In this document: one piece after another, positions 23,024-64,000 of the stretch
Layout: every line of letters begins with the position of its first letter
How positions within the stretch are numbered: the first letter of the stretch is position 1
Assembly (NCBI GenBank): GCA_012295275.1
Contig: CM022677.1
Coordinates: 5,394,001 to 5,458,000 of the forward strand
Source of the DNA: Chrysomallon squamiferum
Lineage: Eukaryota; Animalia; Mollusca
Length of the DNA stretch: 64,000 bases
Direction: 5' to 3'
Made by a program: the position numbers and the translations under genes
The notes under the pieces: generated by a model
The model's input: the letters and a program-made list of their open reading frames with translations, nothing else
The model's database searches: none
Told to the model about the DNA's origin: nothing

Positions 23024-23071
<48 letters not shown>

Positions 23072-23073
<2 letters not shown>

Positions 23074-35706: not shown

Positions 35707-35766
<60 letters not shown>

Positions 35767-36379: not shown

Positions 36380-36410
<31 letters not shown>

Positions 36411-36416
36411 CACTTC

Positions 36417-36454
<38 letters not shown>

Positions 36455-40827: not shown

Positions 40828-40922
<95 letters not shown>

Positions 40923-41243
40923 TCTCTAACTCGCTCTCTTCTCTCAACACAAAATTAACAATTTTACGCTCTAGAAATCATTATATCTGTGAAATTTAAA
41001 TAACGTGTCGGTATGAAAAGGCTGAAAAACAGTATTTACATGTATTTGAAATCATAATAAATAAAATATAGAAATTTTCACGTATTAAAACGGAATTTCG
41101 TAACAAATTTAAATTCTTGACCTTATTTTTACTCTGAATAGCATGAATGAAAAAATATTAAGATTTTAATAAAGAAAGATTTTAAATATGTGAAATAAAT
41201 TAAGAATGCACAAATAGAGATACTACTACTACCACTACTACAA

Positions 41244-41327
<84 letters not shown>

Positions 41328-42481
41328 GTAATATATATATATAATGTATATATAAAAGTCCTGACGTATCACCGATAGTGGGAGGAGTTTACTCCGCCAA
41401 GTAAAAATTGCATCGATTAGAGTTATTTCCCTTTAGTGATATGTGTTCACAAACATACTTTAGACATATGTCCCTTACGTGAGATGTACTCACTAAGCAA
41501 ACTAAAAATTACATCGATTATAGTTATCTCCCTTTAGTGATATGTGTTCACAAACAGGGATGAGAGTTATGTCTCTTACGTGAAACATTTAATAATAATT
41601 TGTATTATCTAATAAAATCTGTGTCATGTCTCTGACTCCCCCCACACACACGCAGAACATGTGACTGTCCTCAGTAACGAACTGCCTCTGTTACCCTGCA
41701 GTAGCAACTGAGCCAAAAGTACTTGAACGAAATCTCAAACAGTTTGAGGAGAGTTTTCAGAAACAGTTTCTGACTTACTTTCCAGAACAACTGCAGAGAG
41801 GGGTAGGTTACGAGGATTACGATGCTGATGAGCGTCTTACAGGAGCAGCAATTACATCTTGTGATGTTGTCTCTCATCAGCTGTCATATTCACATCCCGC
41901 TCTGTCTCAATACAAGGACAACAAGTAAATGGAAGGAGAGAAGTGATCACTCGATCAACATTCTCACTTACGTTTTACAAAACTGATTCTCATTATCGGG
42001 GAGATGTTTAGGAAGATGTATTCCTGTGTTTCGGCTATTACAGTGGGGTCTATGCTATATGTCGCTTGTGTTACATGTAGAGGATCTGTAGTGCTATATC
42101 TTTTTAATCCAATATCTGTGGACGTTTTTCGCCAGGTCACCAAATGTGACCAAAGTGATTACTCGTGCAAAAAAAAACAACAGCCACACGTTAATGCTAA
42201 AGTGAAGCCAGCTAACATTTCCAACCTTAACGTTATAGAGTTATCGGTTGGTTAACAAAACAGTTTATCACAGGCGATAACTCTATTAACAAAAGTTTGC
42301 TATTGTTTTTCCTTATTAATTCAAGTATTAGTTCGCTAAAGTGAAGACAACGAACAAATCTAGCGAACTCTTACAAAGTCAGGTTGAAGAATTATCGGTT
42401 GGTTAACGGAACAAGTTATCATGGGAGATAACTCTGTAACCTTGTATTTGCTATGTTTTTCCTTTTCAATTCCAGTAGGGT

Positions 42482-43150
42482 TACTATCCTGTCAGTAACT
42501 CTGTTTGTTCAAGGCATTGCCTTGTGCCTAGTATATTACAGACTGTGTTATGTCCTACCCTGTCACTGAGTCTCTTTCTTCAAAGCAATGCATCGTGTCT
42601 AATATATTACAGACTGTGGTATGTACTATCCTGTGACTGAGTATTTTTGTTCAAGGCAGTGCACTGTATCTAGTATTACAGACTGTGGTATGTACTACCC
42701 TGTCAGTGTCTGTTCAAGGCAGTGCATCGTGTGTACTATATTACAGACTGTGGTATGTACTATCCTGTCAGTGACTCTGTTTGTTCAAGGCAGTGCATTG
42801 TGTCTAGTATATTAGAGACTCTGGTATGTACTACCCTGTCAGTGAGTCTGTTTGTTCAAGGCAGTGTGTAGTGCCTAGTATATTATAGACTCTGGTATGT
42901 ACTACCCTGTCACTGAGTCTGTTTCTTCAAGTCAGTGGAAGGTGTCTACTATATTACAGACTGTGGTATGTACTATCCACTCAGTGACTATTTGTTCAAG
43001 GCAGTGCCTCGTGCCTAGTATATAACAGGCAGTGGTATGTACTATCGTGTGAGTGAGTATTTTTGTTCAAGGCAGTGCACTGTATCTAGTATTACAGACT
43101 GTGGTATGTACTACCCTGTCAGTGTGTCTGTTCAAGGTAATGCATCGTGT
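42482..43150. repeat. Minisatellite, ~71-bp unit, ~9.5 copies (duplicate at 55410-56079)
   Basis: Unit tactatcctgtcagtgactctgtttgttcaaggcagtgcattgtgtctagtatattacagactgtggtatg, with starts at 42482, 42553 and onward. Confidence 0.95.
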
Positions 43151-43709
43151 TTAGAAATTATTTTCTTGCCAAACAATATTTTTCATGCTTCTTAAATACT
43201 CATCATAAATATGCAGCTCTTTCTCCCTTTAATTATCATTCCCCAATTGATAATCCATATGTTTCACCATAAATACTATGACAATCTATATCTCAACATC
43301 TCTCTAACATAAGTCAGTTTCCCAAATAAGTTGCCCAATTGAGTTTTAATTTCATTGAGTCCTTGACCTATCCAGTGGGTTCTTTAAATGTCTCAGTTAT
43401 CATTTTCTTGAAGAAGCCATTTAAGAAGCCATTCTCTAATTGAACCATTCAAAGGGTAATCCCTTCTCTTTTATGTCCTCAGACTTATCCCTTTATCTTA
43501 ACTACAGATCTATCCCTTTATCTTATCTTCAGATCTATCCCCTTATCTTATCTTCAGATCTATCCCTGTATATGGCTTCCCAGATGGCTTCCCACTTAAC
43601 CCATGCTATGAATATAAAAGCTCTGAGGGAGCACCATTCCTGAGACTCATTAGTGCCATCGTTAGAATACACATCACAAACATATCAATAAAATTACGAT
43701 GAAGTCATG

Positions 43710-44328
43710 CCACATGTATACAAAGTTAGCTACTAGGATGAACAAGATTTGGTGGAAGTACTCCAAGAAAGTCAGTCTTGGTATGTATAAGGGTGGATAC
43801 ACTGTAGATGATTTTATTTATATTTTAAATTTCTGAAATGCAATGATGTGTTAATGAATTCGATTTAATTGGAAGGGCTGGAAAATCTTGTATATTTCTT
43901 CAGATCACAGTAAAAAAGCATAGGATGGGTCTAAGGTTTGAATATCAATATTTCCGAATGACTTCATATTCTGGTATTAATTAGTGTTATATTATGTCTT
44001 TGTAGGTTGTGTGGCTACACTCGGCACTACGGCAGATATGACTGAACCCGGTCGTCCATTCACCTGATGACACCGAGATCTCATACACCAAGTGTTGCAG
44101 TTCCATGTGCGAAATCACTGGAAAAGTCATCACAGATCTTCACTTAAGTCACAGCTGAGCTCGGACCACATGTGCAGGCCGCCTTATCAATCGAGAACAC
44201 TAAGCGCTGTTTACTCAAGCAACACAGGACTCCTCCAGTACCACAGCATCTCTCTGAGTTCATAGCTACCAGATGAGTGGCAGAAGACCGTTGGCCATTA
44301 TCCAGAGCCATTCCTACTCTACGACAAT
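43710..44328 (+). mobile_element. Mutator-like (FLYWCH + MULE) transposase remnant with one intron (duplicate at ~56640-57257)
   Basis: Exon to 43780 HMYTKLATRMNKIWWKYSKKVSL|G, GT-AG intron 43781-44005, then CVATLGTTADMTEP..HSPDDTEISYTK (FLYWCH-like) and TPPVPQHLSEF/LPDEWQKTVGHYPEPFLLYDN (recalled pre-catalytic MULE motif). Frameshifted and truncated. Confidence 0.6.
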
Positions 44329-46422
44329 TACTTTGCACATTATCGTAACATTGATAATAAAATTTAAATAACCTTCATCCTAACCCTAACCATAACATTC
44401 CTTAAACGTAACCCTAACGAAGGAAATGAACTTAATTCTGATGCTAACACCATTTCTAACTGTGCTCTCAGCTTGAACTTACAGTGGCCTTCAAATGCAT
44501 GGCCACAACGCCTAAATATATCATATCTTATTTTCCAAGCGTTCGATTATATGATTTTTTTATTTTATTTTATTTATTATCATTTTTAATTCTGTCTCTT
44601 GTTCCTTTATTGTTTCGTTCTTTTCATTCTAATTATATTTGTTTTGTTTAATGCTATCATAGTTCATAATTTCTATAATAGTTGTAGCTTTCTTTTACAT
44701 TTTCTTTTTGCATGTTTACTCGTTTATTCCTTTCATTTTCTCATCCGTGTTCCACATCCCGCATTGTAATATTACTCTGTAGGGGAAGTGTACGTATACT
44801 CATCCTGTGACAGAGCCTCTGATTGTTTGAAAGGTGTTTAGCCACAGCTGTGTGATACCTCGATCGACATCATGATTGTTATATTAAAGACAGCGGAAAT
44901 CAGCTGACGCGAAAAAAACAAAACAAAGAATAAATCTTATTTCAGCCAAGTCAATTTAATTTTTTTGCTATTTTTTGTATTTGTGTAGTGGTATATAGAT
45001 GCATATGTAGGATATATTATATATTTCTAGGTTAGGACGCAGTCTCGGCATATGGGGATGGAGGAAATTCGCCTACCGAAAAATTAGATGAGGTAAAACA
45101 AATGTGTTCCTTTCGGTTCTGTTTCTTAGTAATTTGGTTCATAGAAATGGCTAGACTAGTCTCGATAAACCACGATTTTTTGAATATATTTACCTCTGAA
45201 TGTTTTTTTCTTTTACTTCATCTTTTTATTATTATTATTACTTTAAAGAACATTTTTAACTTTAAAGAAAAATGAGATGAGTGAAATATTAAAACAATTT
45301 CAAATATTTCAAGATATATATTCTAATTATTAAAGGTATTATGTGCATTGTCATTTTGTTTGAATTACCTCAAGTTTCAGGCTTTATATAACACTTATAA
45401 TTATTCATCAAAACTAGAAAAAATAAATGCTCTGAAAATTATCTATGAGGAAATTTGTGTTTCCCGTCATGACACTTTTTGCTACGGTATAGTTACCACA
45501 TTCCTTCATAAAACGTGTTAAATGCAAAAGCAAAAATATGATGCTATATAGATGTTGTTGAATAAAACATTCATTCCTTCTTTTTCTCATTAAAAAATAC
45601 TATACTTATTATAAACAATAATAGGTTAAAATGTATATAGTAAATTATTATTACTGTTATTGTTGTGTTATTATTGCTATTTTTACTATTAATATATAGT
45701 ACTACTATTATTACTACTATTACTACTACTACTATTGTTGTTATTAAGGTTATTAATATTATTGATATTAATTTTTATCATCGTCATGATTAAAATTGAT
45801 AAAAATAATTGAAATATCAACAAAAGATAATAAGCAGAAAAAATGTGTTTGTCTGTCAAATGTAGATTGATAAAAAAAAATCATGTTTTTATTAAAATTA
45901 GTAAACTTTATACTTACTACTAATGTTAAATATTTTCAGTAGATCACTTCAGTATCATTGAGGTGCTGCCTAGAAAGGTAACTTACATCAAGGATGAATC
46001 AGCTGTTAGAGAAACCATTCTCATGCATTCTGAGTTGTGAGTTTATTTTATTTTGTGTCTTAGAGACAATTCTTAATTCACAGTAAAACAGTAATAATAA
46101 TCAGTCATTTGCTGTTATGTTAATTTTATTATTATTATTAGTATTAACATTATCATTATAATGCTTTACTTGGTGCCATGGGGATTCCCCTAAGTTGTAA
46201 ATGTGTATCTGTCTCGGGCAGGTACTACCCGAGTTGACTTGCTCTAGTGGTCAGTATGGGATCTATATATGCTATATAATTATAAATACCGTATCACTAG
46301 AACAGAACAAACACAAGCAAGTTTAAAAACTGTATTCACATAACATTGAACATTCACTAGTAAAGCATTATTTTTTTTCAATAACAAGAGTTAGGTTGAA
46401 ATCTATCAGGTCATTTTATTCT

Positions 46423-46551
46423 TCACCCCCCACCAATTTCAGCAATAGCTGGTACTGTAGAATCTATTATAGCTGATGTCGTTAATTCAACAGATGTATC
46501 AAAAGCAAATTCTATTATTTCAGTAGATATAATTCCCAAAGCTGTAAACAT
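46423..46551 (-). pseudogene. Truncated ORF1 of mini-unit C (copy 1)
   Basis: MFTALGIISTEIIEFAFDTSVELTTSAIIDSTVPAIAEI(GGG*) is paralogous to ORF1 of units A and B and runs into the inverted terminal sequence. Confidence 0.75.
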
Positions 46552-47274
46552 CCTAACACATCATCAACAAACAGAAAAATGAAAAATATATACATATAGT
46601 TATATTATATATTATATATCACGTGATATTACGGATATGACGTCATACTCTTCAAAATTAAAAATATGGTGGGGGGGTGAAGAATAAAATGACCTGATAG
46701 ATTTCAACCTAACTCTTGTTAATGTAAAAAAAAACAAAGTTCCTCATGATCTGGCTTTTGGGCTTTTTGGCCATAATGTACTTTTACACTTTTACACTAA
46801 AGCTAGAAAGCCAGCTAATAGTGGAACTTTGTTTTTTTAACAGTAAACAAGAGTTTAGTTGAAATCTATCACGTCTTGATTTTAACACCCACCTTTTTAT
46901 TTTGAAGAGTATGACGTCACATATTAATATTTATTTAATATATTGACGTTATTGTAAATAATAATATGATTATGACGATATGACGTCATTAATTTAATTT
47001 ATTATGTTATTAATATATTGACGTCATTATACCTAATATGTTAATATGACGTCATTATTTTAATATGACAGACGATAAGTAATATTTCGTTATTAATATT
47101 AAATAATAAATAACCACAAACAATTAATAACGTTATATATTTATTGATTTAATGATTACATTTTAACAATTAATAATCATTTTTAATATTATATTTTATT
47201 TATTTAAACATTTATATAAACTTCATAACATTAATAACTTAATTATAGTTTTTAAGTAACGTTTGTATTTCAGT

Positions 47275-47877
47275 TCAATTGTCTGATTTATGCTTGTTAA
47301 AAGATTCAATCTGAGTTTCCAAGATAGTTTGCGTAAACATATCAAGGAAGGGTTGGGTTTCCGGTATGTAATATTTGAATCTTTTTGCTTCAGGATCTTC
47401 CGGTTCTCTTCCCACTGTAATGAAGTGTGGATCAATTTCATCATCTGAATTATCATCACGTTTGCGCTTTAATCCTTGTGATTGAGAACATTTATCTTTT
47501 TGAGATTGCTGTCTTTTAATGAATAGGTCCTGAGATGGATTATATTTCTCGACTTCATCATTGTTATCTTCATCACTTGATATGATAACATAATCTATCT
47601 TATCTGAGGTTGCTCCACTGATCATTGGATCATCATTTAGAATAGGATGTTGTGTTCCCAAAACAGATCGACTATCGTCAAAATTGTCTCGAAAGTAACT
47701 GTTTCTGCCTTCAAACGTATTATCATCAATGTTATTATTGTGTTTGTTAAAAAAATATTCTCGATCGTTCTCTAATGCAATATTAATCTCATCGTCAGTA
47801 GGTTCATATCCAACGGTGAACATCTTGGGATGTATGAGATTATATGCATTGTTAAGAGTTTCGCTCTTTTTGAGATT
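47275..47877 (-). CDS. Unit A downstream ORF (acidic, NLS-like GLKRKR), probably 5'-truncated; function unknown (copy 1)
   Basis: 182-aa track ORF. The frame stays open ~18 codons upstream of the ATG (NLKKSETLNNAYNLIHPK) up to the deletion junction with the capsid-like gene. AATAAA follows on the minus strand. Confidence 0.6.
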   Translation of the reverse strand, partial: NLKKSETLNNAYNLIHPKMFTVGYEPTDDEINIALENDREYFFNKHNNNIDDNTFEGRNSYFRDNFDDSRSVLGTQHPILNDDPMISGATSDKIDYVIISSDEDNNDEVEKYNPSQDLFIKRQQSQKDKCSQSQGLKRKRDDNSDDEIDPHFITVGREPEDPEAKRFKYYIPETQPFLDMFTQTILETQIESFNKHKSDN

Positions 47878-48724
47878 TTGATTTTATATCCGACAAATTC
47901 GTCTGGTAAATTCCAGTCATCTGGCTTAGTACTTGCTTGTTTATACCAATAAGGTATTATATGTCCTCCATGATTAAAGGTTAATTTACATACATTAGGA
48001 TCACCTATAGCTTTTTTCCAATTAGTATTTTCAGTACCATTATCTAATATAGTCATTGTAGCTTTTCTACTCTTATTAAAATTAATAACAACTAGTAAAT
48101 GTTCGTTTAAATGTCTTTTTGATCGTTATATATTTAGGATTAGATCCTTTAGTAGTTCCACCAAATCCTTGATATAATACGTTGTTACCCTGTAGCAGAT
48201 GCCATTGGAGCACCTTCTACTGCTTCACTACCTCCTGTATCGGTGACTTCTTCATTCATTATTGAATCTGGTTCCATGACTGATTCATCCGATTGTAGAT
48301 ATGTTCCTTTATAATTAGATCTTTCTAATACATCTTGAGATATAGTATTAGATAATTGATTATTATTAGGAATTTTAGTACTTGATCCACCTTGTGGTTC
48401 ATCTGTCTGTCTCTTCATGGGTTTACTAGACGACATATTGTTATCTAAAGTGGTTTCCTCTGTATATAAAGGCGAATCGAAATATTCTTCCTCGTTCGAA
48501 TCTTCAAAAACGTTATTATTTTCCCGAATATCTTGTATCGCTTGATAGAAACGTTGAGTTGGTATTTGTAAATTCGGATATTGACGTCGTAACTGTATCC
48601 ACCTATCTTGACGTTGATTAACCGGCACATTTAATTCAGCTAACCTAGAGAATGTCTTAGATTTAGCTATAGCCCAAAGTCTGGTAACTTCTTTCTTGTT
48701 GAGCAGACGTTTACCTCTATTCAT
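47877..48724 (-). pseudogene. Unit A capsid (VP)-like gene, frameshifted and truncated (copy 1)
   Basis: Same as 60805-61651, plus an extra C at ~48189 giving an early stop. Confidence 0.75.
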
Positions 48725-49078
48725 GAAATTGGAATGTTTCTATATACGTAATTGACGTAGTCGTCTTCTTCTTGTTCTAGTTCCTCACGTTCTGATTTAG
48801 ATAATTTATTATCTAAATCTTTACCATCTGAATTAATAAATTCACTAAATTGATTGACAGCTTCTTGTATCTGATTTTTCGTAAATGTAGAAATACCTTC
48901 TATCGATGATTCTACGACAGATTGTCCAATAGCTGTAGCTGGTTCCAAATATATACTGTCAGCTCCCAATATTTCGGTAATAGCAGGTACAGTAGATTCT
49001 ATTATAGCAGATGTAGCTATTTCAACTGAAGCATCAAACGCGTATTCAATAAGCTCAATAACCTAAAGCTGTAAACAT
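48721..49078 (-). pseudogene. Unit A ORF1 (acidic, ~118 codons, 1-nt offset after MFTALG) (copy 1)
   Basis: MFTALG / IELIEYAFDASVEIATSAIIESTVPAITEILGADSIYLEP..YVYRNIPIS*. Its stop overlaps the VP-like ATG (ATGA). Confidence 0.65.
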
Positions 49079-49191
49079 CCCATCACAACGATAGATTGAT
49101 CGTAAATAATCAATAAATTATATATATATATATATATATAATATTTATAACGTATATGACGTCACATATCTTCAAAATAAAAATCAAGACG

Positions 49192-49440
49192 TGATAGATT
49201 TCAACAAACTCTTGTTTACTGTTAAAAAAACAAAGTTCCACTATTAGCTGGCTTTCTAGCTTTTGGCTTTTTGACCATAATGCGCTTTTAACCCGAAGGT
49301 GATAACGTTCCTTCGGGCGAAGCCTGAACCCACGGATCAGATGTTAAAAGTACATTATGGTCAAAAGCCGTAGAAAGCTAAGTTAACAGGTGAACTTTTG
49401 TTTTTAACAGTAAAACAAGAGTTAGGTAGAAATCTATCAG
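49192..49440. repeat. Terminal palindrome, copy 1 (centre 49304-49335 in 'flip' orientation; right arm degenerate)
   Basis: Left arm ends ...aacccgaaggtgat, centre aacgttccttcgggcgaagcctgaacccacgg, right arm has indels. Confidence 0.85.
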
Positions 49441-49583
49441 GTCATGATTTTTCTTTTTGAAGATGTCTATATATGTCACGTGATATTGTCATGTGACATA
49501 TATGAACTATAATAATAGTATTGCGATTAATTATTACTTCAGTCGTCTCACCGTCGTTGTATGTGATAGATGTTCACAGCGTT

Positions 49584-49783
49584 NNNNNNNNNNNNNNNNN
49601 NNNNNNNNNNNNNNNNNNNNNNNNNNNNNNNNNNNNNNNNNNNNNNNNNNNNNNNNNNNNNNNNNNNNNNNNNNNNNNNNNNNNNNNNNNNNNNNNNNNN
49701 NNNNNNNNNNNNNNNNNNNNNNNNNNNNNNNNNNNNNNNNNNNNNNNNNNNNNNNNNNNNNNNNNNNNNNNNNNNNNNNNNNN
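49584..49783. other. Assembly gap (200 N)
   Basis: Run of N. Confidence 1.
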
Positions 49784-50254
49784 ATGGTTCATAGTACAAA
49801 ATCTTAAAGGCATATGTCACTATAATTTAGTATTAGAATTCATTGTTAAAAAAGTGGTGTTTAGTTTTGTCTTAAAATGTTATTGTAATTATATTTCCTA
49901 TTTAACAAACTTCAGTTGGATTAGTAACATCATGCAGAGTGATTTTGACTGCTCAAAATTTATATGAAAATTTCATTGTTTTTGTTCAAGGGACAAATCG
50001 AAAAAACAGTTTTTAGCAAAATAGAATTTTACAATAATTAATTAAGTGTAATAATAACTCAAATAAACAAACAAATAATGGAAATTGGGTCTTTATAAAC
50101 TTTTGGAGTAAATATATGTTACTATTGAAATATTTTGTGATAAATCATTTTAAAGAATTAGCAAAATTCATCTAAATGTAGCAAATCAAATTTAGCTTGA
50201 CACTGCTAAGGGATATAACTTTAACGTGTTTGTAAATATACAAAAAAGACTGAG

Positions 50255-50321
<67 letters not shown>

Positions 50322-50324
50322 GAA

Positions 50325-50362
<38 letters not shown>

Positions 50363-51146
50363 TGATTATGTCAGATTATCTTTTAAATTGATAACAAATA
50401 CAGAAGACGCTGATCAATATATACATAATAAAAATAAAACACACAAAGACTATTCTTTCTTTTATTTTGTTTTAAATTATTTGAATGTGCCTTAACATTT
50501 TAATGTTAAGAAATTGAAACAATTTCAGAAATATTTTCCATTTTCATTATTGTTTTTAGATAAGATGCAATGAGGTTGAATTTGCAAATGTCAGGATTTA
50601 AAACAGTTAAGAACAAATACTATTTTCTTTTTTGAAAAATATTTGTACTGCCACCCATTTATGTAACATAACCTGGTTATATTTTATTAACCAAAAACTC
50701 CAATCATTGCATTCCCCAAAGTAGATATAATAATAAAAGCAAGGACAAAATTAATCACGGTTACAGGATGTTATCTGTGAGAAAGAGTTAATGTGTTTAT
50801 GGTCAGAGAGAACTGTTGTATGTGAAAGACAATGTGTCCTTGTTTATGTATAAATAAATACAAGTTCTAAGTGTTTTGATTGTTTTTTTGTTTTTTTTAA
50901 ATGAACAGAAAAATGATATACAATTAGATATAAAAATATGATTATTAAACTGGATTATTTTAATGATTTATTCTTATATTATTGTCTTGATTTTGAATTG
51001 TTCTTATTAACATTAAATGATATTTGAAAAAACCTGAAATTAATCAGGCTAAAAATAATTTTAGCGCTATTAAAAGCAGTATCATTTTTAAAACATATTT
51101 GCAGTAATTTTTATTTTAAAGAAAATGAAACTGAAATGATGTAATG

Positions 51147-51185
<39 letters not shown>

Positions 51186-51475
51186 GTAATAATAATAAAT
51201 GTTTAAAATTTTACAAGTGTGGGATTTATTATTTGAATTATTATTATTACTTAAGTATTCTAAAATTCCTATTTCGCTTAAAATGTTTTAGTTTTACGAT
51301 TTGCCCCTTGAATAAAAAGAAATATTCATTGTTTATAATAATAATAATAAATCAAATAAACCAAAAAATAATGGAAACTGGTTGATTAGAAAATGAATTT
51401 AATATTGGAATAGTTTGCAATGTTATATCTATTAATGGTCTAAGGGAAACAACTCTATTTAATGGGTTTGTAAAT

Positions 51476-51545
<70 letters not shown>

Positions 51546-52787
51546 TGTGTGTTTTTAGTGTTCATTCTAGTGCTTTGATTGTTTGTTTTCATAAAATCAA
51601 ACAACATGTATATATAAAAAATAATGATTAAATCAGATTATCTTTTGTTGGTTGACAACAAATACCGAAGATGTTATCAATATATACATAATAAAAATAA
51701 AAACACACAAAGACTATTCTTTATTCGTTTATTTTTGTTTTGAATTATTTGAATGTGCCTTAACATTTTTAATGTTAAGAAACTGAAACAACTTAAGCAT
51801 TATTTTCTATTTTGATTATTGTTTTTAGATAAGATGCAATGGGTTTGATTTTGTAAATGTCTCCCATTTACGTAACATAATTTACCTTGGAAACATTAAA
51901 TACCATTTTATACTTCATTTTTTAAAGAGATAATTATTATTTTCTTTCTAATTGAATTAAACAGAAAATACAGATTATAAATAAATTGGAAGACATTTCC
52001 AATTGCACATTTTTGAAATAATTTTTTGAATTTTATGAAAATGTGAAAGGCAAATTATAAAATACTTGGAAACATTCCAATTATGTACATTTTTTTTTGT
52101 TTCTCTTATTTTTTTTTTATCATTTATAAATTATTTTTAGTTTTTTAAAGATTTTTTGTTGAAATAATTCAATTATTCTTTCTAAAGTGGCAATGCAAAT
52201 TATAAAAACTGGTAGAAATGTCTAAACAAAAATAACTGAATATTTAAGTTTTTTTATCTAGACAGGTTTTTAAGTAATTTCAACTTGAAGATCATCATGT
52301 TTCTTCTAATTAAAAATAACAAAGTCATGGTTAATGCAAATAAAATTTTAATTTAGTTAATAGTTAATTTTATTAATAGTCATTGATTTTCCTATGATTT
52401 AAATAATTTAAAGACATTTTTAAAAAAAGATTTCCTGAATTATAAAAAAAAAAAAAAAAATTCTTATTACCCCAACTACACAATCTTCAATTATATTTAT
52501 ATTAGCCCCAGCAAACTCACCTGATTTAAACAAGATAAAGAAAAAACTGGTTGTCACATTAATTTTAGCTTATTTAGAAAAATGGCATTCCATAGCAATG
52601 ATGCATATCCATTCCTCTTCCAGTGAGAAACATTAGAATAACCAAGCACACATCAGTGATAAAAACAGTGCAAGCTGCTATGAAGTACAATGTGTACACT
52701 GGATGTTCTGATCACATTGACAATGCAGTCTCTTGGAGATCACTGAATTTTCAAAATTATTTCCCTTCAGATTTCTCTTTTTTTTTC
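49784..52787 (-). repeat. ~3-kb inverted duplication of 34114-36923
   Basis: The start atggttcatagtacaaaatcttaaaggcatatgtcac is the reverse complement of ~36887-36923. The end ttcccttcagatttctctttttttttc is the reverse complement of 34114-34139. Collinear in between. Confidence 0.93.
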
Positions 52788-53764
52788 TTTGACTGCATCC
52801 ACTGGTTCTGCTGTAGCATTCAAATTGAACTGCCGTTTTGACTTTGGTATCTTCTATTTTTGTTGTTGTAATGTTGCCTCTAAAACCTTTCATTTCTTTG
52901 CCTTTTCTTCCACCTTTTTCTTCTTCTCTGCCAACTCTTCTTCATACCTCTTGACACTTTCTTCTTCTGTCAATGCCTCGGCAGACCTCATCCTCTTGAT
53001 TTTATTTGAAGTTTGACCACGTGCCCGCCACCCACAGATGGACCGTAGACTTTCAACTGTTTCAAAAACCTTAAATAAAACTCAGAATAGACTACATCAA
53101 TGCCAACACTATTGATTGCACCACCAAATATGGGGGCCAAGAAGTGTCTATAATAGTTTCAGTTAAAGAGCACATTAAATCACAAAACCTATAATACTTA
53201 ATTATCACATAATATCTGGTAAAATAAAATAATCCATCTGATTAGAGTAACCCGGAGAGTGAGAGAGAGAGAGTAAGAAAGCCTAAGGGAGATATTTATA
53301 TGTCATAAGTACATACACTTCTGTTGGCCTGTCTGTCTTTCTGTATATAGAAAGGGCTTTCAAATTAATGGCACTGTATTCGAAATCAGAAAACAGTAGC
53401 AATACCCTATGTATCCATCTGTTCATCTATCTTCAGTAACTATCTCTGTATGTAGTATTTCTATTTATCTATCATAAATCTATCTATCTGTCTATATATC
53501 TACCCAATTAATATAATATTAATGTACTAATTAGCCATTCCCTTTGGAAATGTTGCCACACATACACCACGGTGATGTTCAGTACACGTAGGGGATGTTA
53601 GTAATGGTTAGTATTTGTTAAATGTTAGTATTTGTTGACGGTTAGTATTTGGTTAACAGTTAGTTTTTAGTTAATGGCTAATATTTGGTTAGTGGTTAGA
53701 ATTTTGTCAATGGTTTGTTAAATGTTAGTATTTGGTTAATGGTTACTCGCTTTCTCTCTGTCTA

Positions 53765-53859
<95 letters not shown>

Positions 53860-54195
53860 TCCATCTCTCTAACTCGCTCTCTTCTCTCAACACAAAATTA
53901 ACAATTTTACGCTCTAGAAATCATTATATCTGTGAAATTTAAATAACGTGTCGGTATGAAAAGGCTGAAAAACAGTATTTACATGTATTTGAAATCATAA
54001 TAAATAAAATATAGAAATGTTCACGTATTAAAACGGAATTTCGTAACAAATATAAATTCTTGACCTTATTTTTACTCTGAATAGCATGAATGAAAAAATA
54101 TTAAGATTTTAATAAAGAAAGATTTTAAATATGTGAAATAAATTAAGAATGCACAAATAGAGATACTACTACTACCACTACTACAACTACCACTT

Positions 54196-54234
<39 letters not shown>

Positions 54235-57200
54235 ATAATAATAATAATAATAATAATAATAGTAATATATATATATAATGTATATATAAAAAGTCCTGAC
54301 GTATCACCGATAGTGGGAGGAGTTTACTCCGCCAAGTAAAAATTGCATCGATTAGAGTTATTTCCCTTTAGTGATATGTGTTCACAAACATACTTTAGAC
54401 ATATGTCCCTTACATGAGATGTACTCACTAAGCAAACTAAAAATTACATCGATTATAGTTATCTCCCTTTAGTGATATGTGTTCACAAACAGGGATGAGA
54501 GTTATGTCTCTTACGTGAAACATTTAATAATAATTTGTATTATCTAATAAAATCTGTGTCATGTCTCTGACTCCCCCCACACACACGCAGAACATGTGAC
54601 TGTCCTCAGTAACGAACTGCCTCTGTTACCCTGCAGTAGCAACTGAGCCAAAAGTACTTGAACGAAATCTCAAACAGTTTGAGGAGAGTTTTCAGAAACA
54701 GACTTACTTTCCAGAACAACTGCAGAGAGGGGTAGGTTACGAGGATTACGATGCTGATGAGCGTCTTACAGGAGCAGCATTTACATCTTGTGATAATGTC
54801 TCTCATCAGCTGTCATATTCACATCCCGCTCTGTCTCAATACAAGGACAACAAGTAAATGGAAGGAGAGAAGTGATCACTCGATCAACATTCTCACTTAC
54901 GTTTTACAAAACTGATTCTCATTATCGGGGAGATGTTTAGGAAGATGTATTCCTGTGTTTCGGCTATTACAGTGGGGTCTATGCTATATGTCGCTTGTGT
55001 TACATGTAGAGGATCTGTAGTGCTATATCTTTTTAATCCAATATCTGTGGACATTTTTCGCCAGGTCAGCAAATGTGACCAAAGTGATTACTCGTGCAAA
55101 AAAAACAACAGCCACACGTTAATGCTAAAGTGAAGCCAGCTAACATTTCCAACCTTAACGTTATAGAGTTATCGGTTGGTTAACAAAACAGTTTATCACA
55201 GGCGATAACTCTATTAACAAAAGTTTGCTATTGTTTTTCCTTATTAATTCAAGTATTAGTTCGCTAAAGTGAAGCCAACGAACAAATCTAGCGAACTCTT
55301 ACAAAGTCAGGTTGAAGAATTATCGGTTGGTTAACGGAACAAGTTATCATGGGAGATAACTCTGTAACCTTGTATTTGCTATGTTTTTCCTTTTCAATTC
55401 CAGTAGGGTTACTATCCTGTCAGTGACTCTGTTTGTTCAAGGCATTGCCTTGTGCCTAGTATATTACAGACTGTGTTATGTCCTACCCTGTCACTGAGTC
55501 TCTTTCTTCAAAGCAATGCATCGTGTCTAATATATTACAGACTGTGGTATGTACTATCCTGTGACTGAGTATTTTTTGTTCAAGGCAGTGCACTGTATCT
55601 AGTATTACAGACTGTGGTATGTACTACCCTGTCAGTGTCTGTTCAAGGCAGTGCATCGTGTGTACTATATTACAGACTGTGGTATGTACTATCCTGTCAG
55701 TGACTCTGTTTGTTCAAGGCAGTGCATTGTGTCTAGTATATTAGAGAGTCTGGTATGTACTACCCTGTCAGTGAGTCTGTTTGTTCAAGGCAGTGTGTAG
55801 TGCCTAGTATATTATAGACTCTGGTATGTACTACCCTGTCACTGAGTCTGTTTCTTCAAGTCAGTGGAAGGTGTCTACTATATTACAGACTGTGGTATGT
55901 ACTATCCACTCAGTGACTATTTGTTCAAGGCAGTGCCTCGTGCCTAGTATATAACAGGCAGTGGTATGTACTATCGTGTGAGTGAGTATTTTTGTTCAAG
56001 GCAGTGCACTGTATCTAGTATTACAGACTGTGGTATGTACTACCCTGTCAGTGTGTCTGTTCAAGGTAATGCATCGTGTTTAGAAATTATTTTCTTGCCA
56101 AACAATATTTTTCATGCTTCTTAAATACTCATCATAAATATGCAGCTCTTTCTCCCTTTAATTATCATTCCCCAATTGATAATCCATATGTTTCACCATA
56201 AATACTATGACAATCTATATCTCAACATCTCTCTAACATAAGTCAGTTTCCCAAATAAGTTGCCCAATTGAGTTTTAATTTCATTGAGTCCTTGACCTAT
56301 CCAGTGGGTTCTTTAAATGTCTCAGTTATCATTTTCTTGAAGAAGCCATTTAAGAAGCCATTCTCTAATTGAACCATTCAAAGGGTAATCCCTTCTCTTT
56401 ATGTCCTCAGACTTATCCCTTTATCTTAACTACAGATCTATCCCTTTATCTTATCTTCAGATTTATCCCCTTATCTTATCTTCAGATCTATCCCTGTATA
56501 TGGCTTCCCAGATGGCTTCCCCCACTTAACCCATGCTATGAATATAAAAGCTCTGAGGGAGCACCATTCCTGAGACTCATTAGTGCCATCGTTAGAATAC
56601 ACATCACAAACATATCAATAAAATTACGATGAAGTCATGCCACATGTATACAAAGTTAGCTACTAGGATGAACAAGATTTGGTGGAAGTACTCCAAGAAA
56701 GTCAGTCTTGGTATGTATAAGGGTGGATACACTGTAGATGATTTTATTTATATTTTAAATTTCTGAAATGCAATGATGTGTTAATGAATTCGATTTAATT
56801 GGAAGGGCTGGAAAATCTTGTATATTTCTTCAGATCACAGTAAAAAAGCATAGGATGGGTCTAAGGTTTGAATATCAATATTTCCGAATGACTTCATATT
56901 CTGGTATTAATTAATGTTATATTATGTCTTTGTAGGTTGTGTGCTACACTCGGCACTACGGCAGATATGACTGAACCCGGTCGTCCATTCACCTGATGAC
57001 ACCGAGATCTCATACACCAAGTGTTGCAGTTCCATGTGCGAAATCACTGGAAAAGTCATCACAGATCTTCACTTAAGTCACAGCTGAGCTCGGACCACAT
57101 GTGCAGGCCGCCTTATCAATCGAGAACACTAAGCGCTGTTTACTCAAGCAACACAGGACTCCTCCAGTACCACAGCATCTCTCTGAGTTCATAGCTACCA

Positions 57201-59349
57201 GATGAGTGGCAGAAGACCGTTGGCCATTATCCAGAGCCATTCCTACTCTACGACAATTACTTTGCACATTATCGTAACATTGATAATAAAATTTAAATAA
57301 CCTTCATCCTAACCCTAACCATAACATTCCTTAAACGTAACCCTAACGAAGGAAATGAACTTAATTCTGATGCTAACACCATTTCTAACTGTGCTCTCAG
57401 CTTGAACTTACAGTGGCCTTCAAATGCATGGCCACAACGCCTAAATATATCATATCTTATTTTCCAAGCGTTCGATTATATGATTTTTTTTTATTTTATT
57501 TTATTTATTATCATTTTTAATTCTGTCTCTTGTTCCTTTATTGTTTCGTTCTTTTCATTCTAATTATATTTGTTTTGTTTAATGCTATCATAGTTCATAA
57601 TTTCTATAATAGTTGTAGCTTTCTTTTACATTTTCTTTTGCATGTTTACTCGTTTATTCCTTTCATTTTCTCATCCGTGTTCCACATCCCGCATTGTAAT
57701 ATTACTCTGTAGGGGAAGTGTACGTATACTCATCCTGTGACAGAGCCTCTGATTGTTTGAAAGGTGTTTAGCCACAGCTGTGTGATACCTCGATCGACAT
57801 CATGATTGTTATATTAAAGACAGCGGAAATCAGCTGACGCGAAAAAAACAAAACAAAGAATAAATCTTATTTCAGCCAAGTCAATTTAATTTTTTTGCTA
57901 TTTTTTGTATTTGTGTAGTGGTATATAGATGCATATGTAGGATATATTATATATTTCTAGGTTAGGACGCAGTCTCGGCATATGGGGATGGAGGAAATTC
58001 GCCTACCGAAAAATTAGATGAGGTAAAACAAATGTGTTCCTTTCGGTTCTGTTTCTTAGTAATTTGGTTCATAGAAATGGCTAGACTAGTCTCGATAAAC
58101 CACGATTTTTTGAATATATTTACCTCTGAATGTTTTTTCTTTTACTTCATCTTTTTATTATTATTATTACTTTAAAGAACATTTTTAACTTTAAAGAAAA
58201 ATGAGATGAGTGAAATATTAAAACAATTTCAAATATTTCAAGATATATATTCTAATTATTAAAGGTATTATGTGCATTGTCATTTTGTTTGAATTACCTC
58301 AAGTTTCAGGCTTTATATAACACTTATAATTATTCATCAAAACTAGAAAAAATAAATGCTCTGAAAATTATCTATGAGGAAATTTGTGTTTCCCGTCATG
58401 ACACTTTTTTCTACAGTATAGTTACCACATTCCTTCATAAAACGTGTTAAATGCAAAAGCAAAAATATGATGCTATATAGATGTTGTTGAATAAAACATT
58501 CATTCCTTCTTTTTCTCATTAAAAAATACTATACTTATTATAAACAATAATAGGTTAAAATGTATATAGTAAATTATTATTACTGTTATTGTTGTGTTAT
58601 TATTGCTATTTTTACTATTAATATATATTACTACTATTATTACTACTATTACTACTACTACTATTGTTATTAAGGTTATTAATATTATTGATATTAATTT
58701 TTATCATCGTCATGATTAAAATTGATAAAAATAATTGAAATATCAACAAAAGATAATAAGCAGAAAAAATGTGTTTGTCTGTCAAATGTAGATTGATAAA
58801 AAAAAATCATGTTTTTATTAAAATTAGTAAACTTTATACTTACTACTAATGTTAAATATTTTCAGTAGATCACTTCAGTATCATTGAGGTGCTGCCTAGA
58901 AAGGTAACTTACATCAAGGATGAATCAGCTGTTAGAGAAACCATTCTCATGCATTCTGAGTTGTGAGTTTATTTTATTTTGTGTCTTAGAGACAATTCTT
59001 AATTCACAGTAAAACAGTAATAATAATCAGTCATTTGCTGTTATGTTAATTTTTATTATTATTATTAGTATTAACATTATCATTATAATGCTTTCCTTGG
59101 TGCCATGGGGATTCCCCTAAGTTGTAAATGTGTGTCTGTCTCGGGCAGGTACTACCCGAGTTGACTTGCTCTAGTGGTCAGTATGGGATCTATATATGCT
59201 ATATAATTATAAATACCGTATCACTAGAACAGAACAAACACAAGCAAGTTTAAAAACTGTATTCACATAACATTGAACATTCACTAGTAAAGCATTATTT
59301 TTTTACAATAACAAGAGTTAGGTTGAAATCTATCAGGTCATTTTATTCT

Positions 59350-59478
59350 TCACCCCCCACCAATTTCAGCAATAGCTGGTACTGTAGAATCTATTATAGC
59401 TGATGTCGTTAATTCAACAGATGTATCAAAAGCAAATTCTATTATTTCAGTAGATATAATTCCCAAAGCTGTAAACAT
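59350..59478 (-). pseudogene. Truncated ORF1 of mini-unit C (copy 2)
   Basis: 42-aa reading MFTALGIISTEIIEFAFDTSVELTTSAIIDSTVPAIAEIGGG*. Confidence 0.75.
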
Positions 59479-59839
59479 CCTAACACATCATCAACAAACA
59501 GAAAAATGAAAAATATATACATATAGTTATATTATATATTATATATCACGTGATATTACGGATATGACGTCATACTCTTCAAAATTAAAAATATGGTGGG
59601 GGGGTGAAGAATAAAATGACCTGATAGATTTCAACCTAACTCTTGTTAATGTAAAAAAAAACAAAGTTCCTCATGATCTGGCTTTTGGGCTTTTTGGCCA
59701 TAATGTACTTTTACACTTTTACACCAAAGCTAGAAAGCCAGCTAATAGTGGAACTTTGTTTTTTTAACAGTAAACAAGAGTTTAGTTGAAATCTATCACG
59801 TCTTGATTTTAACACCCACCTTTTTTATTTTGAAGAGTA

Positions 59840-59982
59840 TGACGTCACATATTAATATTTATTTAATATATTGACGTTATTGTAAATAATAATATGATTA
59901 TGACGATATGACGTCATTAATTTAATTTATTATGTTATTAATATATTGACGTCATTATACTTAATATGTTAATATGACGTCA
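59840..59982. promoter_or_regulatory. Cluster of perfect CRE/ATF palindromes (TGACGTCA)
   Basis: TGACGTCA at 59840, 59909, 59947 and 59975, plus 59565 and 62076. Copy 1 has them at 46638, 46912, 46981, 47019, 47047 and 49157. Confidence 0.6.
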
Positions 59983-60202
59983 TTATTTTAATATGACAGA
60001 CGATAAGTAATATTTCGTTATTAATATTAAATAATAAATAACCACAAACAATTAATAACGTTATATATTTATTGATTTAATGATTACATTTTAACAATTA
60101 ATAATCATTTTTAATATTATATTTTATTTATTTAAACATTTATATAAACTTCATAACATTAATAACTTAATTATAGTTTTTAAGTAACGTTTGTATTTCA
60201 GT

Positions 60203-60805
60203 TCAATTGTCTGATTTATGCTTGTTAAAAGATTCAATCTGAGTTTCCAAGATAGTTTGCGTAAACATATCAAGGAAGGGTTGGGTTTCCGGTATGTAAT
60301 ATTTGAATCTTTTTGCTTCAGGAACTTCCGGTTCTCTTCCCACTGTAATGAAGTGTGGATCAATTTCATCATCTGAATTATCATCACGTTTGCGCTTTAA
60401 TCCTTGTGATTGAGAACATTTATCTTTTTGAGATTGCTGTCTTTTAATGAATAGGTCCTGAGATGGATTATATTTCTCGACTTCATCATTGTTATCTTCA
60501 TCACTTGATATGATAACATAATCTATCTTATCTGAGGTTGCTCCACTGATCATTGGATCATCATTTAGAATAGGATGTTGTGTTCCCAAAACAGATCGAC
60601 TATCGTCAAAATTGTCTCGAAAGTAACTGTTTCTGCCTTCAAACGTATTATCATCAATGTTATTATTGTGTTTGTTAAAAAAATATTCTCGATCGTTCTC
60701 TAATGCAATATTAATCTCATCGTCAGTAGGTTCATATCCAACGGTGAACATCTTGGGATGTATGAGATTATATGCATTGTTAAGAGTTTCGCTCTTTTTG
60801 AGATT
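60203..60805 (-). CDS. Unit A downstream ORF, probably 5'-truncated; function unknown (copy 2)
   Basis: 182-aa track ORF 60203-60751, frame open to ~60805. Minus-strand AATAAA at 60123-60128. Confidence 0.6.
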   Translation of the reverse strand, partial: NLKKSETLNNAYNLIHPKMFTVGYEPTDDEINIALENDREYFFNKHNNNIDDNTFEGRNSYFRDNFDDSRSVLGTQHPILNDDPMISGATSDKIDYVIISSDEDNNDEVEKYNPSQDLFIKRQQSQKDKCSQSQGLKRKRDDNSDDEIDPHFITVGREPEVPEAKRFKYYIPETQPFLDMFTQTILETQIESFNKHKSDN

Positions 60806-61651
60806 TTGATTTTATATCCGACAAATTCGTCTGGTAAATTCCAGTCATCTGGCTTAGTACTTGCTTGTTTATACCAATAAGGTATTATATGTCCTCCATG
60901 ATTAAAGGTTAATTTACATACATTAGGATCACCTATAGCTTTTTTCCAATTAGTATTTTCAGTACCATTATCTAATATAGTCATTGTAGCTTTTCTACTC
61001 TTATTAAAATTAATAACAACTAGTAAATGTTCGTTTAAATGTCTTTTTGATCGTTATATATTTAGGATTAGATCCTTTAGTAGTTCCACCAAATCCTTGA
61101 TATAATACGTTGTTACCTGTAGCAGATGCCATTGGAGCACCTTCTACTGCTTCACTACCTCCTGTATCGGTGACTTCTTCATTCATTATTGAATCTGGTT
61201 CCATGACTGATTCATCCGATTGTAGATATGTTCCTTTATAATTAGATCTTTCTAATACAGCTTGAGATATAGTATTAGATAATTGATTATTATTAGGAAT
61301 TTTAGTACTTGATCCACCTTGTGGTTCATCTGTCTGTCTCTTCATGGGTTTACTAGACGACATATTGTTATCTAAAGTGGTTTCCTCTGTATATAAAGGC
61401 GAATCGAAATATTCTTCCTCGTTCGAATCTTCAAAAACGTTATTATTTTCCCGAATATCTTGTATCGCTTGATAGAAACGTTGAGTTGGTATTTGTAAAT
61501 TCGGATATTGACGTCGTAACTGTATCCACCTATCTTGACGTTGATTAACCGGCACATTTAATTCAGCTAACCTAGAGAATGTCTTAGATTTAGCTATAGC
61601 CCAAAGTCTGGTAACTTCTTTCTTGTTGAGCAGACGTTTACCTCTATTCAT
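60805..61651 (-). pseudogene. Unit A capsid (VP)-like gene with a 1-nt insertion (~61019) and 3' deletion (copy 2)
   Basis: Track ORFs 61010-61651 and 60700-60984 join into one protein aligning with unit B VP up to ..DEFVGYKIK, after which similarity stops abruptly. Confidence 0.8.
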
Positions 61652-62005
61652 GAAATTGGAATGTTTCTATATACGTAATTGACGTAGTCGTCTTCTTCTT
61701 GTTCTAGTTCCTCACGTTCTGATTTAGATAATTTATTATCTAAATCTTTACCATCTGAATTAATAAATTCACTAAATTGATTGACAGCTTCTTGTATCTG
61801 ATTTTTAGTAAATGTAGAAATACCTTCTATCGATGATTCTACGACAGATTGTCCAATAGCTGTAGCTGGTTCCAAATATATACTGTCAGCTCCCAATATT
61901 TCGGTAATAGCAGGTACAGTAGATTCTATTATAGCAGATGTAGCTATTTCAACTGAAGCATCAAACGCGTACTCAATAAGCTCAATAACCTAAAGCTGTA
62001 AACAT
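61648..62005 (-). pseudogene. Unit A ORF1 (copy 2)
   Basis: ATG at 62005, 1-nt offset after MFTALG, then open to the TGA overlapping the VP-like ATG. Confidence 0.65.
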
Positions 62006-62111
62006 CCCATCACAACGATAGATTGATCGTAAATAATCAATAAATTATATATATATATAATATTTATAACGTATATGACGTCACATATCTTCAAAATAAA
62101 AAATCAAGACG

Positions 62112-62370
62112 TGATAGATTTCAACTAAACTCTTGTTTACTGTTAAAAAAACAAAGTTCCACTATTAGCTGGCTTTCTAGCTTTTGGCTTTTTGACCATA
62201 ATGCGCTTTTAACCCGAAGGTGATCCGTAGGGTTCAGGCTTCGCCCGAAGGAACGTTATCACCTTCGGGTTAAAAGTACATTATGGTCAAAAAGCCAAAA
62301 GCTAGAAAGCCAGCTAATAGTGGAACTTTGTTTTTTTAACAGTAAACAAGAGTTAGGTAGAAATCTATCA
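62112..62370. repeat. Terminal palindrome, copy 2: 113-bp arms (5 mismatches) around a 33-nt asymmetric GC-rich centre ('flop')
   Basis: Arms 62112-62224 and 62258-62370. Centre ccgtagggttcaggcttcgcccgaaggaacgtt with inner stems cttcg/cgaag and gttc/gaac. Confidence 0.95.
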
Positions 62371-62399
62371 GGTCATGATTTTTTCTTTGAAGAGATGTC

Positions 62400-62475
62400 T
62401 ATATATGTCACGTGATATTGTCATGTGACATATATAGACTATAATAATAGTATTGCGATTAATTATTACTTCAGT
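62400..62475 (+). promoter_or_regulatory. Putative promoter of unit B
   Basis: 16-bp inverted repeat with a CACGTG E-box (62400-62436), TATA-like tataata at 62440, TCAGT initiator-like motif at 62471, ATG at 62502. Confidence 0.45.
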
Positions 62476-62501
62476 CGTCTTCACGTCGTTGTATGTGATA
62501 G

Positions 62502-62846
62502 ATGTTCACAGCGTTAGGTATTGATCGAATACGCTTTCGATGCTTCTGGTGAACTTGCTACATCTGCTATAATAGATTCGACTGCACCAGCTATTACAGA
62601 AATAATAGGAGCTGACAGTTTGTTATTGGAACCAGCTACAGCTATAGGACAGAGTATAGTGGAGTCGTCTGTTGAAGGTATTTCTACATATACTAAAAAC
62701 AAGAGACATTAGATCAATTTGTCGACTTTGTTACACCGGATATAAAGGATATAGACGCTGACGTTTCTCCATCGGAACGACAGCAATTAGAGCAGGAAGA
62801 GGACGAATACGTAACTTACGTATATAGGAATAGTCCGGTTTCATGA
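62502..62846 (+). pseudogene. Unit B ORF1 (acidic; offset after MFTALG and a frameshifting deletion near 62700)
   Basis: MFTALG / LIEYAFDASGELATSAIIDSTAPAITEIIGADSLLLEPATAIGQSIVESSVEGISTYTKN / QETLDQFVDFVTPDIKDIDADVSPSERQQLEQEEDEYVTYVYRNSPVS*. Aligns with unit A ORF1 throughout. Confidence 0.75.
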
Positions 62847-64000
62847 ATAAAGGAAAACGTCTTCTGAATAAAAAGGAAGTGACGAGACTTTGGGCTATAG
62901 CTAAATCCAAAGCATTTTCGATATTATCGGATTTCAATGTCCCATTTGAAGAACGACAAACCAGGTGGCTACAGATCAGACGTCAGTATCCAAATCTACA
63001 AATTCCTAATCAAAATTTCTATCAGGCAATACAGAATCTTAGGGAGAACTATAACGCTGCTGAAGATTCGGACGAAGACGACCCTTTCAGCACCCCTTTA
63101 TACCCAGACGACGACATCAACAACAACCAACAACCAGCAGCAGGGAGAGATATTGAACGATCCGGAAATCAAGATACTAAACCAGCTATGAAACGACAAA
63201 CAAGCGAACCAGCCGGTGGAAGTAATTCTAAAGTTGCTAATAATAACAAGCAACTGTCTCACAGGATATCGCAAGATGTCATAGAACAGTCTAATTCTAA
63301 AGGAACCTATCTTCAGCCTAACGAATCGGTGATGGAACCCGATTCGATTATGAACGAAAAGGTAACAGATACAGGAGGAAGTGAGGCTGTCGAAGGTGCT
63401 CCGATCGCTTCGGCTACAGGTAATAATGTTTTGTACCAAGGATTTGGAGGATGTACTAAAGGAGCTGATCCCCGATATATAACGATAAAAAAGACATTTA
63501 AACGAACATTTACGAGTACCATTAATTTTACTAAAACCAGAAAGGCTATTATGAAAATATTAGATAATGATACGGATGATGTAAATTGGAAAAAAGCTAT
63601 AGGTGATCCTAATGTTTGTGAATTAACGTTTAATCACGGTGGTCATATTACACCCTATTGGTATAAACAGGCCAGCACCAGACCAGATGACTGGAATTTA
63701 CCCGATGATTTTGTTGGATATAAAATAAAACGATTTGGTTTCAATATAAACAATATGATTATACATGTATTAAATAATAATAAATCAGATCCGAATGAGG
63801 TACCAGTAATGGCACCTCCAAATTCACGTGTGTGGACGTTCACCGATATCTATAATGATTATGGTCCACCGGAGAAGAATTTAAACCTATCTCACAACCA
63901 TTATTTTAGAGATGAGGAATGTATGGATAGTACTAGTCTTAGGAGTATACCAGTTCAACCCGATCGTAAACTGTATCTGCCCAGTGACGTAGGAATGCAA
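62843..64000 (+). CDS. Unit B parvovirus-like capsid protein (VP), open to the window end (386 codons, 3'-partial)
   Basis: Manual translation shows no stop: MNKGKRLLNKKEVTRLWAIAKSKAFS..GGSEAVEGAPIASATGNNVLYQGFGG..YITIKKTFKRTFTSTINF..FNHGGHITPYWYKQASTRPDDWNLPDDFVGYKIKRFGFNINNMIIH..APPNSRVWTFTDIYNDYG.. A disordered N-terminus, Gly-rich linker and strand/helix pattern resemble hamaparvovirus-type jelly-roll capsids. No PLA2 motif seen. Confidence 0.75.
   Translation, partial: MNKGKRLLNKKEVTRLWAIAKSKAFSILSDFNVPFEERQTRWLQIRRQYPNLQIPNQNFYQAIQNLRENYNAAEDSDEDDPFSTPLYPDDDINNNQQPAAGRDIERSGNQDTKPAMKRQTSEPAGGSNSKVANNNKQLSHRISQDVIEQSNSKGTYLQPNESVMEPDSIMNEKVTDTGGSEAVEGAPIASATGNNVLYQGFGGCTKGADPRYITIKKTFKRTFTSTINFTKTRKAIMKILDNDTDDVNWKKAIGDPNVCELTFNHGGHITPYWYKQASTRPDDWNLPDDFVGYKIKRFGFNINNMIIHVLNNNKSDPNEVPVMAPPNSRVWTFTDIYNDYGPPEKNLNLSHNHYFRDEECMDSTSLRSIPVQPDRKLYLPSDVGMQ

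Follow-up and report, generated by a model that had tools for sequence, protein, structure and literature searches.

The window analysed here is a 64,000-nucleotide stretch of the Chrysomallon squamiferum genome (GCA_012295275.1, contig CM022677.1). It consists of AT-rich animal DNA with microsatellites, and toward its right end it contains an array of three ITR-flanked units connected at their ends; each unit has an ITR variant of its own. Host repeats and genes lie to the left of the array. Elsewhere in the window, an intronless prolyl 4-hydroxylase alpha-like frame at 22943-23785 on the plus strand (2OG-Fe(II) oxygenase, E 1e-10) is broken by an in-frame stop (23459-23461) and is likely a processed pseudogene. 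A 280-codon frame at 14949-15791, also on the plus strand, encodes a protein that contains an internal repeat, ends in a hydrophobic C-terminus and carries a C3HC4 RING finger (E 8e-8). Every unit of the array begins with an ITR, followed by ORF1 and VP, with a promoter region just inside the end; unit 3 keeps this order and starts at the axis of the hairpin that it shares with unit 2. The VP start codon is overlapped by the ORF1 stop in units 2 and 3. TGACGTCA boxes, which we take to be CRE-like, occur within the ITRs (59565-59982, 62076-62083) and are repeated in the AT-rich end of unit 2; six of the 12 such boxes in the window lie in the unit array, and the remainder are likely in the array's duplicate. 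The features are collected in the table below.

Table 1. Features of the unit array and of its second assembled copy; positions are those of the window.
Feature	Position	Strand	Details
Second assembled copy of units 1 and 2	46371..49583	.	Hairpin loop inverted, right arm degraded, then N gap
Left host-virus junction	59270..59298	.	ITR similarity ends at 59298; host repeat to left
Unit 1, mini unit of ~420 nt	59298..59715	-	Own ITR variant at both ends (96% over 71 nt); first 40 ORF1 codons only
Degenerate palindrome between units 1 and 2	59562..59850	.	z -14; central loop absent
Unit 2	59720..62240	-	ITR, ORF1, VP, tail frame, AT-rich end, ITR; ITRs identical over 85 nt
Unit 2 tail frame, 202 codons open	60203..60811	-	On the VP strand, unrelated to VP; chance ~1e-7
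Unit 2 VP	61651-60805	-	Frameshift near 61015; homology stops at residue 296
Unit 2 ORF1	62005-61648	-	One frame change
Terminal hairpin, units 2 and 3 head to head	62090..62392	.	Arms of 131 nt with 94% complementarity; loop asymmetric
Unit 3 ORF1, small acidic protein	62502..62846	+	Two frame changes, near 62525 and 62709
Unit 3 VP gene, 5' half	62843..64000	+	386 codons, ~330 more expected; homologue model and fold searches
Predicted three-helix N-terminal domain	62870..63064	+	Residues 10-74; model mean pLDDT 79
Acidic linker, predicted disordered, glycine-rich at its end	63065..63478	+	pLDDT <50 in homologue residues 72-179
Predicted jelly-roll core, beginning	63479..64000	+	Matches homologue residues ~188-362

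Translation of the VP frame of unit 3 gives 386 residues with zero stops, and the frame is still open at the end of the window. At the local base composition, a stop-free run of this length has a chance of about 7e-13, and the long uninterrupted frame described in an earlier, sequence-only reading is thus borne out. Residue 386 aligns with residue 362 of a 690-aa relative, P0004, which is 51% identical. The window therefore covers about 54% of the expected VP gene, and the frame is established as uninterrupted for that portion.

Neither unit 3 VP nor its alignment gave any Pfam or PDB sequence match, and the 43 aligned members carried no parvoviral Pfam family. Relatives were obtained by protein searches. 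Two lie on ENA contigs, and the cluster of one of these contains two complete 690-aa proteins. A search with P0004 in a library clustered at 50% identity returned 57 matches, 27 of which are at least 588 aa long and share 27-33% identity. All nine of the long relatives that were looked up are on Logan contigs of 3.3-7.4 kb, and six of the nine have cluster members on contigs of 5.8-7.4 kb. Scans of IMG/VR found no relative. A metagenome scan gave one match, a related VP piece with 47% identity to P0021 on the 1-kb contig L001 (1-1011), where the piece is bordered by unrelated-looking sequence. In a quick, unfinished tree, unit 3 VP grouped with the ENA copies (SH-aLRT 100); the lineage as a whole is not placed by that tree.

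A structural model of P0004, built from 43 aligned sequences (mean pLDDT 60), contains confident N-terminal helices, a disordered linker and a beta core. The matches listed in fold searches of PDB and BFVD with this model are parvoviral capsids at no more than 16% identity, with Foldseek E values from 4e-10 to 6e-15 and, against parvoviral capsids, Z scores of 13.4-15.1 (rmsd 4.2-7.7 over 242-292 residues). Z was 15.1 for BmDNV1, 14.7 for SsChPV and about 14 for AAV and ZmBWV, at 8-14% identity. Capsids of densoviruses, chapparvoviruses and AAV are thus about equally distant from that of P0004, and because the Z scores fall within about 1.5 of each other across subfamilies, no subfamily is favored. 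Atlas concurs with the capsid assignment at 0.91, with low recognition. The single jelly-roll of parvoviral fold that an endogenous element of the Parvoviridae should encode is predicted in the P0004 model; the fold was determined for this relative's model rather than for unit 3 VP's own core. The modelled fold of a 51%-identical relative supports the earlier description of the frame as capsid-like, and we regard unit 3 as carrying the predicted capsid gene of a parvovirus lineage that is still unclassified.

The N-terminal part of the protein contains the conserved block (RLWAIAKSK..) that had been pointed out from the sequence, as quoted. Of the 27 long matches, 23 have the motif W-[GA]-x-[AFT]-K close to their N-terminus, and a profile adds one that lies outside its training set, giving 24 of 27. 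W17, K21, W42 and P55 are invariant across 33 aligned rows, which were selected for having this motif. When the profile was built from distant relatives alone, P0004 scored 39.5 bits, and the VP of the window scored weakly, at 16.9 bits. In a model of the first 80 residues, helices span residues 10-30, 35-48 and 57-74. Structure searches with this three-helix domain gave no clear match (Foldseek best E 1.9), and its best Z of 6.0 is at the level of common helical bundles, which does not show a new fold. Comparison of units 2 and 3 places the domain among the most constrained parts of VP (dN/dS 0.07), and the linker that follows it is the fastest-evolving part (dN/dS 0.23).

It had also been remarked that this block sits where many parvoviruses have PLA2. 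One relative, P0047 (Logan, 984 aa), carries PLA2 at residues 6-72 (PF08398, E 4.5e-11) and the motif of the helical block downstream of it, at residue 113, with a weak profile match (14.8 bits). Since PLA2 lies upstream of the block in this protein, the block is a domain of the viral lineage as a whole and not a decayed PLA2. P0047 suggests that PLA2 was gained or lost inside the lineage. PLA2 in the unique N-terminus of VP1, a mark of the Densovirinae and Parvovirinae, is absent from unit 3 VP, from the ORF1 pieces and from the 43 aligned members, and is present in one relative, P0047. As some genera lack PLA2, its absence lowers the case for membership in either subfamily and does not settle it. 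The three-helix domain is predicted to correspond to the unique N-terminal region of the largest capsid protein and, from its position, would probably serve entry or trafficking in a lineage that is mostly without PLA2. A domain that has no known match thus bears on how parvoviruses lacking PLA2 enter cells.

The gene upstream of VP is broken, in agreement with the earlier statement that the adjacent ORF1 is frameshifted: contigs from all four sequencing runs in which locus-matching contigs were examined pass through both frame changes of unit 3 ORF1 without a gap. No homologue of ORF1 was found among proteins of 62-198 aa, and Atlas scores did not exceed 0.82. ORF1 has been hit twice and the VP part has stayed unbroken (p ~0.05 if breaks are random), a difference that offers a weak hint of retention of VP.

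Unit 2 and unit 3 meet head to head in a hairpin of 300 nt with a folding energy of -138 kcal/mol (z -32). Compared piece by piece, the two units have dS of 0.9-1.9 (about 1.3), with dN/dS of 0.07-0.23 in VP and about 0.2 in ORF1. Divergence of this extent under purifying selection indicates that units 2 and 3 are distinct viral variants. The same dS and dN/dS pattern rules out neutral decay of one head-to-head dimer. The hairpin stems of the two units are nearly identical over about 95 nt and diverge only at the inner end, as would be expected if the palindrome of unit 2 had been copied and then recombined with unit 3 inside the stem. Further inside unit 2, the tail frame matched no family and no homologue among proteins of 355-2000 aa; it is likely the end of another viral gene, which may be NS1. 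No NS1 family, with its HUH endonuclease and SF3 helicase, was found in 41 frames of the window or in another scan of 10 frames; unit 3 continues past the window end, and units 1 and 2 have lost part of their sequence to deletions.

Two properties expected of an endogenous member of the Parvoviridae were observed in the array. Its ends are palindromic hairpins with two loop orientations, the inverted loop being known from a single assembled copy whose quality is doubtful. On its left side the array is integrated into the chromosome: host repeats and genes adjoin it there, and the loose end of two contigs in run X1 crosses the junction.

Part of the array is assembled twice. A block of 9.7 kb at 39878-49583 repeats 52783-62515 at 98% identity; the two are near-identical for 55000-62000 and more diverged at the left end. 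The block stops at a gap of 200 N (49584-49783), a few codons into ORF1, so that it holds no copy of the plus-strand VP. The sequence-only reading had contrasted the open VP with a frameshifted "unit A" paralogue, a comparison that cannot stand: the duplicate block ends before any copy of unit 3 VP, and the gene that is actually frameshifted is the minus-strand VP of unit 2 (duplicate at 48724-47877), which has 67-73% protein identity and is broken in both duplicates. An inverted duplicate of about 2.8 kb with 92-93% identity (34115-36920 and 49786-52785) adjoins the gap, and a 71-nt tandem array of about nine copies is present in both duplicates (55410-56061 and 42482-43154). The hairpin loop of the second copy is the reverse complement of the main loop, a flip/flop pattern (score 55 reversed versus 14 forward). 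Because the 200-N gap separates the duplicates, the block may be a second haplotype. Nanopore mapping quality is described as falling behind AAV hairpins (PMC7671332), and the degraded arm, perhaps the whole duplicate, may accordingly be an assembly effect.

Such effects raise the question of whether the chain itself is an assembly product, formed from free viral DNA or several loci that were mis-joined via the shared palindrome. The degraded right arm of the second copy, its end at a gap and the drop in mapping quality behind hairpins would fit this, and no listed contig spans the hairpin, so that the joint between units 2 and 3 rests on the assembly. The left host-virus junction is nevertheless present in contigs of run X1, and the broken ORF1 and an identical VP sequence are found again, at the lowest depth level, in four runs that come from three studies, a recurrence expected of a heritable locus. 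We therefore consider a mis-joined chain quite improbable.

The locus is present in other individuals, as the sequence-only reading had proposed to check. Seven of 10 listed runs (seven samples, three studies, one organism) contain 77-96% of its words; one of these seven may be the source of the assembly. Next to no words were found in two runs from another organism and in one small run from a positive sample, which proves no absence. In four runs, the locus-matching contigs show 0-5 letter differences; the VP frame carries no indel in any listed piece, and the contigs bear out the broken ORF1. Three of the four runs have small holes in the listed pieces of the locus. Each of the four runs also yielded 107-151 aligned contigs, most of them less than 99% alike. 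Relative to the level of the locus, summed depth was 6-137x at four gene sites and 83-400x at the hairpin; these ratios differ about fivefold between runs and are scaled to the locus rather than to single-copy host genes, and summed depth is not copy number. Free viral DNA could also yield high ratios that differ between runs. Of the 40 variant sites listed out of 281, 35 lie within the VP frame; they comprise 21 silent changes and 14 amino-acid replacements, without a single stop (p 5e-7). A second genome contains two 690-aa copies and many fragments; 13 cluster members are 91-99.9% identical to P0004, and five of the 13 are on 297-kb contigs. As intact copies occur there among broken ones, such a mixture is normal for this VP family.

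These observations bear on whether the host has adopted VP as a protein, for instance as an antiviral decoy or capsid-like carrier. The 386 open codons, the lack of an indel in the listed locus contigs of four out of four runs and the broken neighboring ORF1 are what such a role would lead one to expect. A co-opted gene should, however, exist as a single or few fixed copies, and more than 100 contigs per run with much higher summed depth were found. The constraint measured here is between viral variants, the second genome mixes intact with broken copies, the ORF1 contrast is marginal, and five substitutions in one run may be silent or not. The suggested selective retention or co-option thus lacks support, since the contrast between an intact and a broken VP is one between different viral variants (dS ~1.3) of a many-copy family. 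As a co-option candidate, unit 3 VP is weak, and we judge adoption by the host very improbable. The frame is likely intact because it belongs to a young member of a many-copy family.

Together, these data suggest that unit 3 VP is the capsid gene of the third unit of a chromosomal chain in which the genomes of several variants of one virus, mostly internally deleted, were joined by their ITRs and recently entered the germ line; we place the probability of this reading at roughly 0.62. The variants would have diverged earlier as replicating viruses, and rolling-hairpin replication with recombination within the shared stem may have formed the joints. AAV genomes are described as joining by recombination at ITRs (PMC1131931). 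The frame of unit 3 would still be open since little time has elapsed, and the young insertion proposed from the sequence alone is likely, its youth being read from ITR identity and low diversity. Uninterrupted frames of at least 300 aa are described at 56 vertebrate EPV loci (PMC9707805). Copying or packaging of a VP unit would require NS1 from elsewhere, as the window has none.

In a second reading, the units belong to a mobile family that retains its hairpins, or are the VP segments of a parvovirus whose genome is segmented; they would have spread in the genome with NS1 supplied in trans, inserting at existing ITRs or recombining with them, and unit 1 would be a miniature non-autonomous element. 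All units start with ITR, ORF1 and VP, the 41 scanned frames hold no NS1 family, the ITRs match within units, summed depth at the hairpin is high, and arrays occur in the second genome; a bipartite parvovirus with a VP-only segment has been described (PMC10267136). Unit 2 lies between two ends without an NS1 match, yet it is internally deleted, and no NS unit was seen in the window. Units 1 and 2 are plain deletion products, no target-site duplication or empty site was seen, and the 5.8-7.4 kb contigs of six of the nine long relatives have space for NS and VP together. This reading is possible but clearly less probable than the chain of deleted genomes. Equally tentative is its wider form, an undescribed germ-line lineage of many-copy, hairpin-ended, capsid-only units (multipartite or transposon-like) that chain at their ends and carry diverged capsids, in which a new three-helix domain for entry would take the place of PLA2. 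If the units do move within the genome, this would mean a transposon-like lifestyle for parvoviruses.

The array might instead be kept as an antiviral template, that is, a small-RNA cluster of viral fragments whose open frame has no role of its own. With its clustered and rearranged fragments, which lie in both orientations, the array resembles the shrimp IHHNV EVE clusters (PMC9357335), and the head-to-head layout could yield complementary RNA. According to PMC11357303, the IHHNV elements are without hairpins, and the units of the window retain both ends. We regard maintenance as a template as improbable; as a later use of the array, such a role would be compatible with the chain of variant genomes that we favor.

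In the literature searched, which was incomplete and in which the supplements of PMC5013282 and PMC13426907 may list related sequences, no description of this capsid lineage or of hairpin-joined VP arrays was found. What is new is a capsid lineage unnamed by the searches, together with its three-helix domain, and the chaining of diverged variants that retain their ends. Endogenous parvoviral elements are reported to be common in invertebrates (PMC5013282), and the present locus connects a host genome with a parvovirus lineage that is large, apparently without a name, and has a capsid that belongs with none of the subfamilies.

With known capsids of the Parvoviridae (BmDNV1 3p0s, SsChPV 9nek, ZmBWV 8t9x, AAV5 9dcc), the predicted protein shares a jelly-roll core after a long, disordered, glycine-rich N-terminus (Z 14.0-15.1). 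It differs from them in its 8-14% identity, in the lack of any Pfam or PDB sequence match in 43 members and in its conserved three-helix N-terminal domain. Hepanhamaparvovirus, compared by description only, is similar in its ~6.3 kb genome, long hairpin-forming ITRs and lack of PLA2 as given in the account of PMC11357303; it was not among the best 50 matches of either fold search, which does not exclude a relation. The SwaBA megaparvovirus 1 lineage likewise has a large genome, a VP without PLA2 and endogenous copies in invertebrates (PMC13426907). Membership among the megaparvoviruses was considered and rejected, because the VP of that lineage (PMC13426907) has 504-577 aa and no disordered N-terminus, whereas unit 3 VP has about 700 aa and a long one.

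In the segmented densovirus of Acheta domesticus (PMC10267136), too, a unit with hairpin ends carries VP and small extra frames and lacks NS. By the same account it differs in being a free virus with a PLA2 gene, ends that form no ITRs and a VP of 377 aa; for the units of the window, segmentation is only hypothesised. The IHHNV EVE clusters of Penaeus monodon (PMC9357335, PMC11357303) are, like the array, clustered and rearranged parvoviral pieces in an animal genome. As described there, they are scrambled, hairpin-free fragments of one virus type, whereas the array has whole ends and diverged variants placed end to end. Elements that keep both hairpin ends and chain diverged variants would preserve, in a germ line, a record of replication intermediates and of defective genomes. 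Units 1 and 2 resemble the defective genomes of MVM and H-1, which reportedly are internally deleted and keep both ends. AAV concatemers and flip-flop ITRs (PMC1131931, PMC7671332) offer a parallel in ITR-to-ITR joints between genomes and in two loop orientations. The AAV, MVM and H-1 forms are described from infected or transduced cells, whereas the array of the window is inherited and joins natural variants at dS >1.
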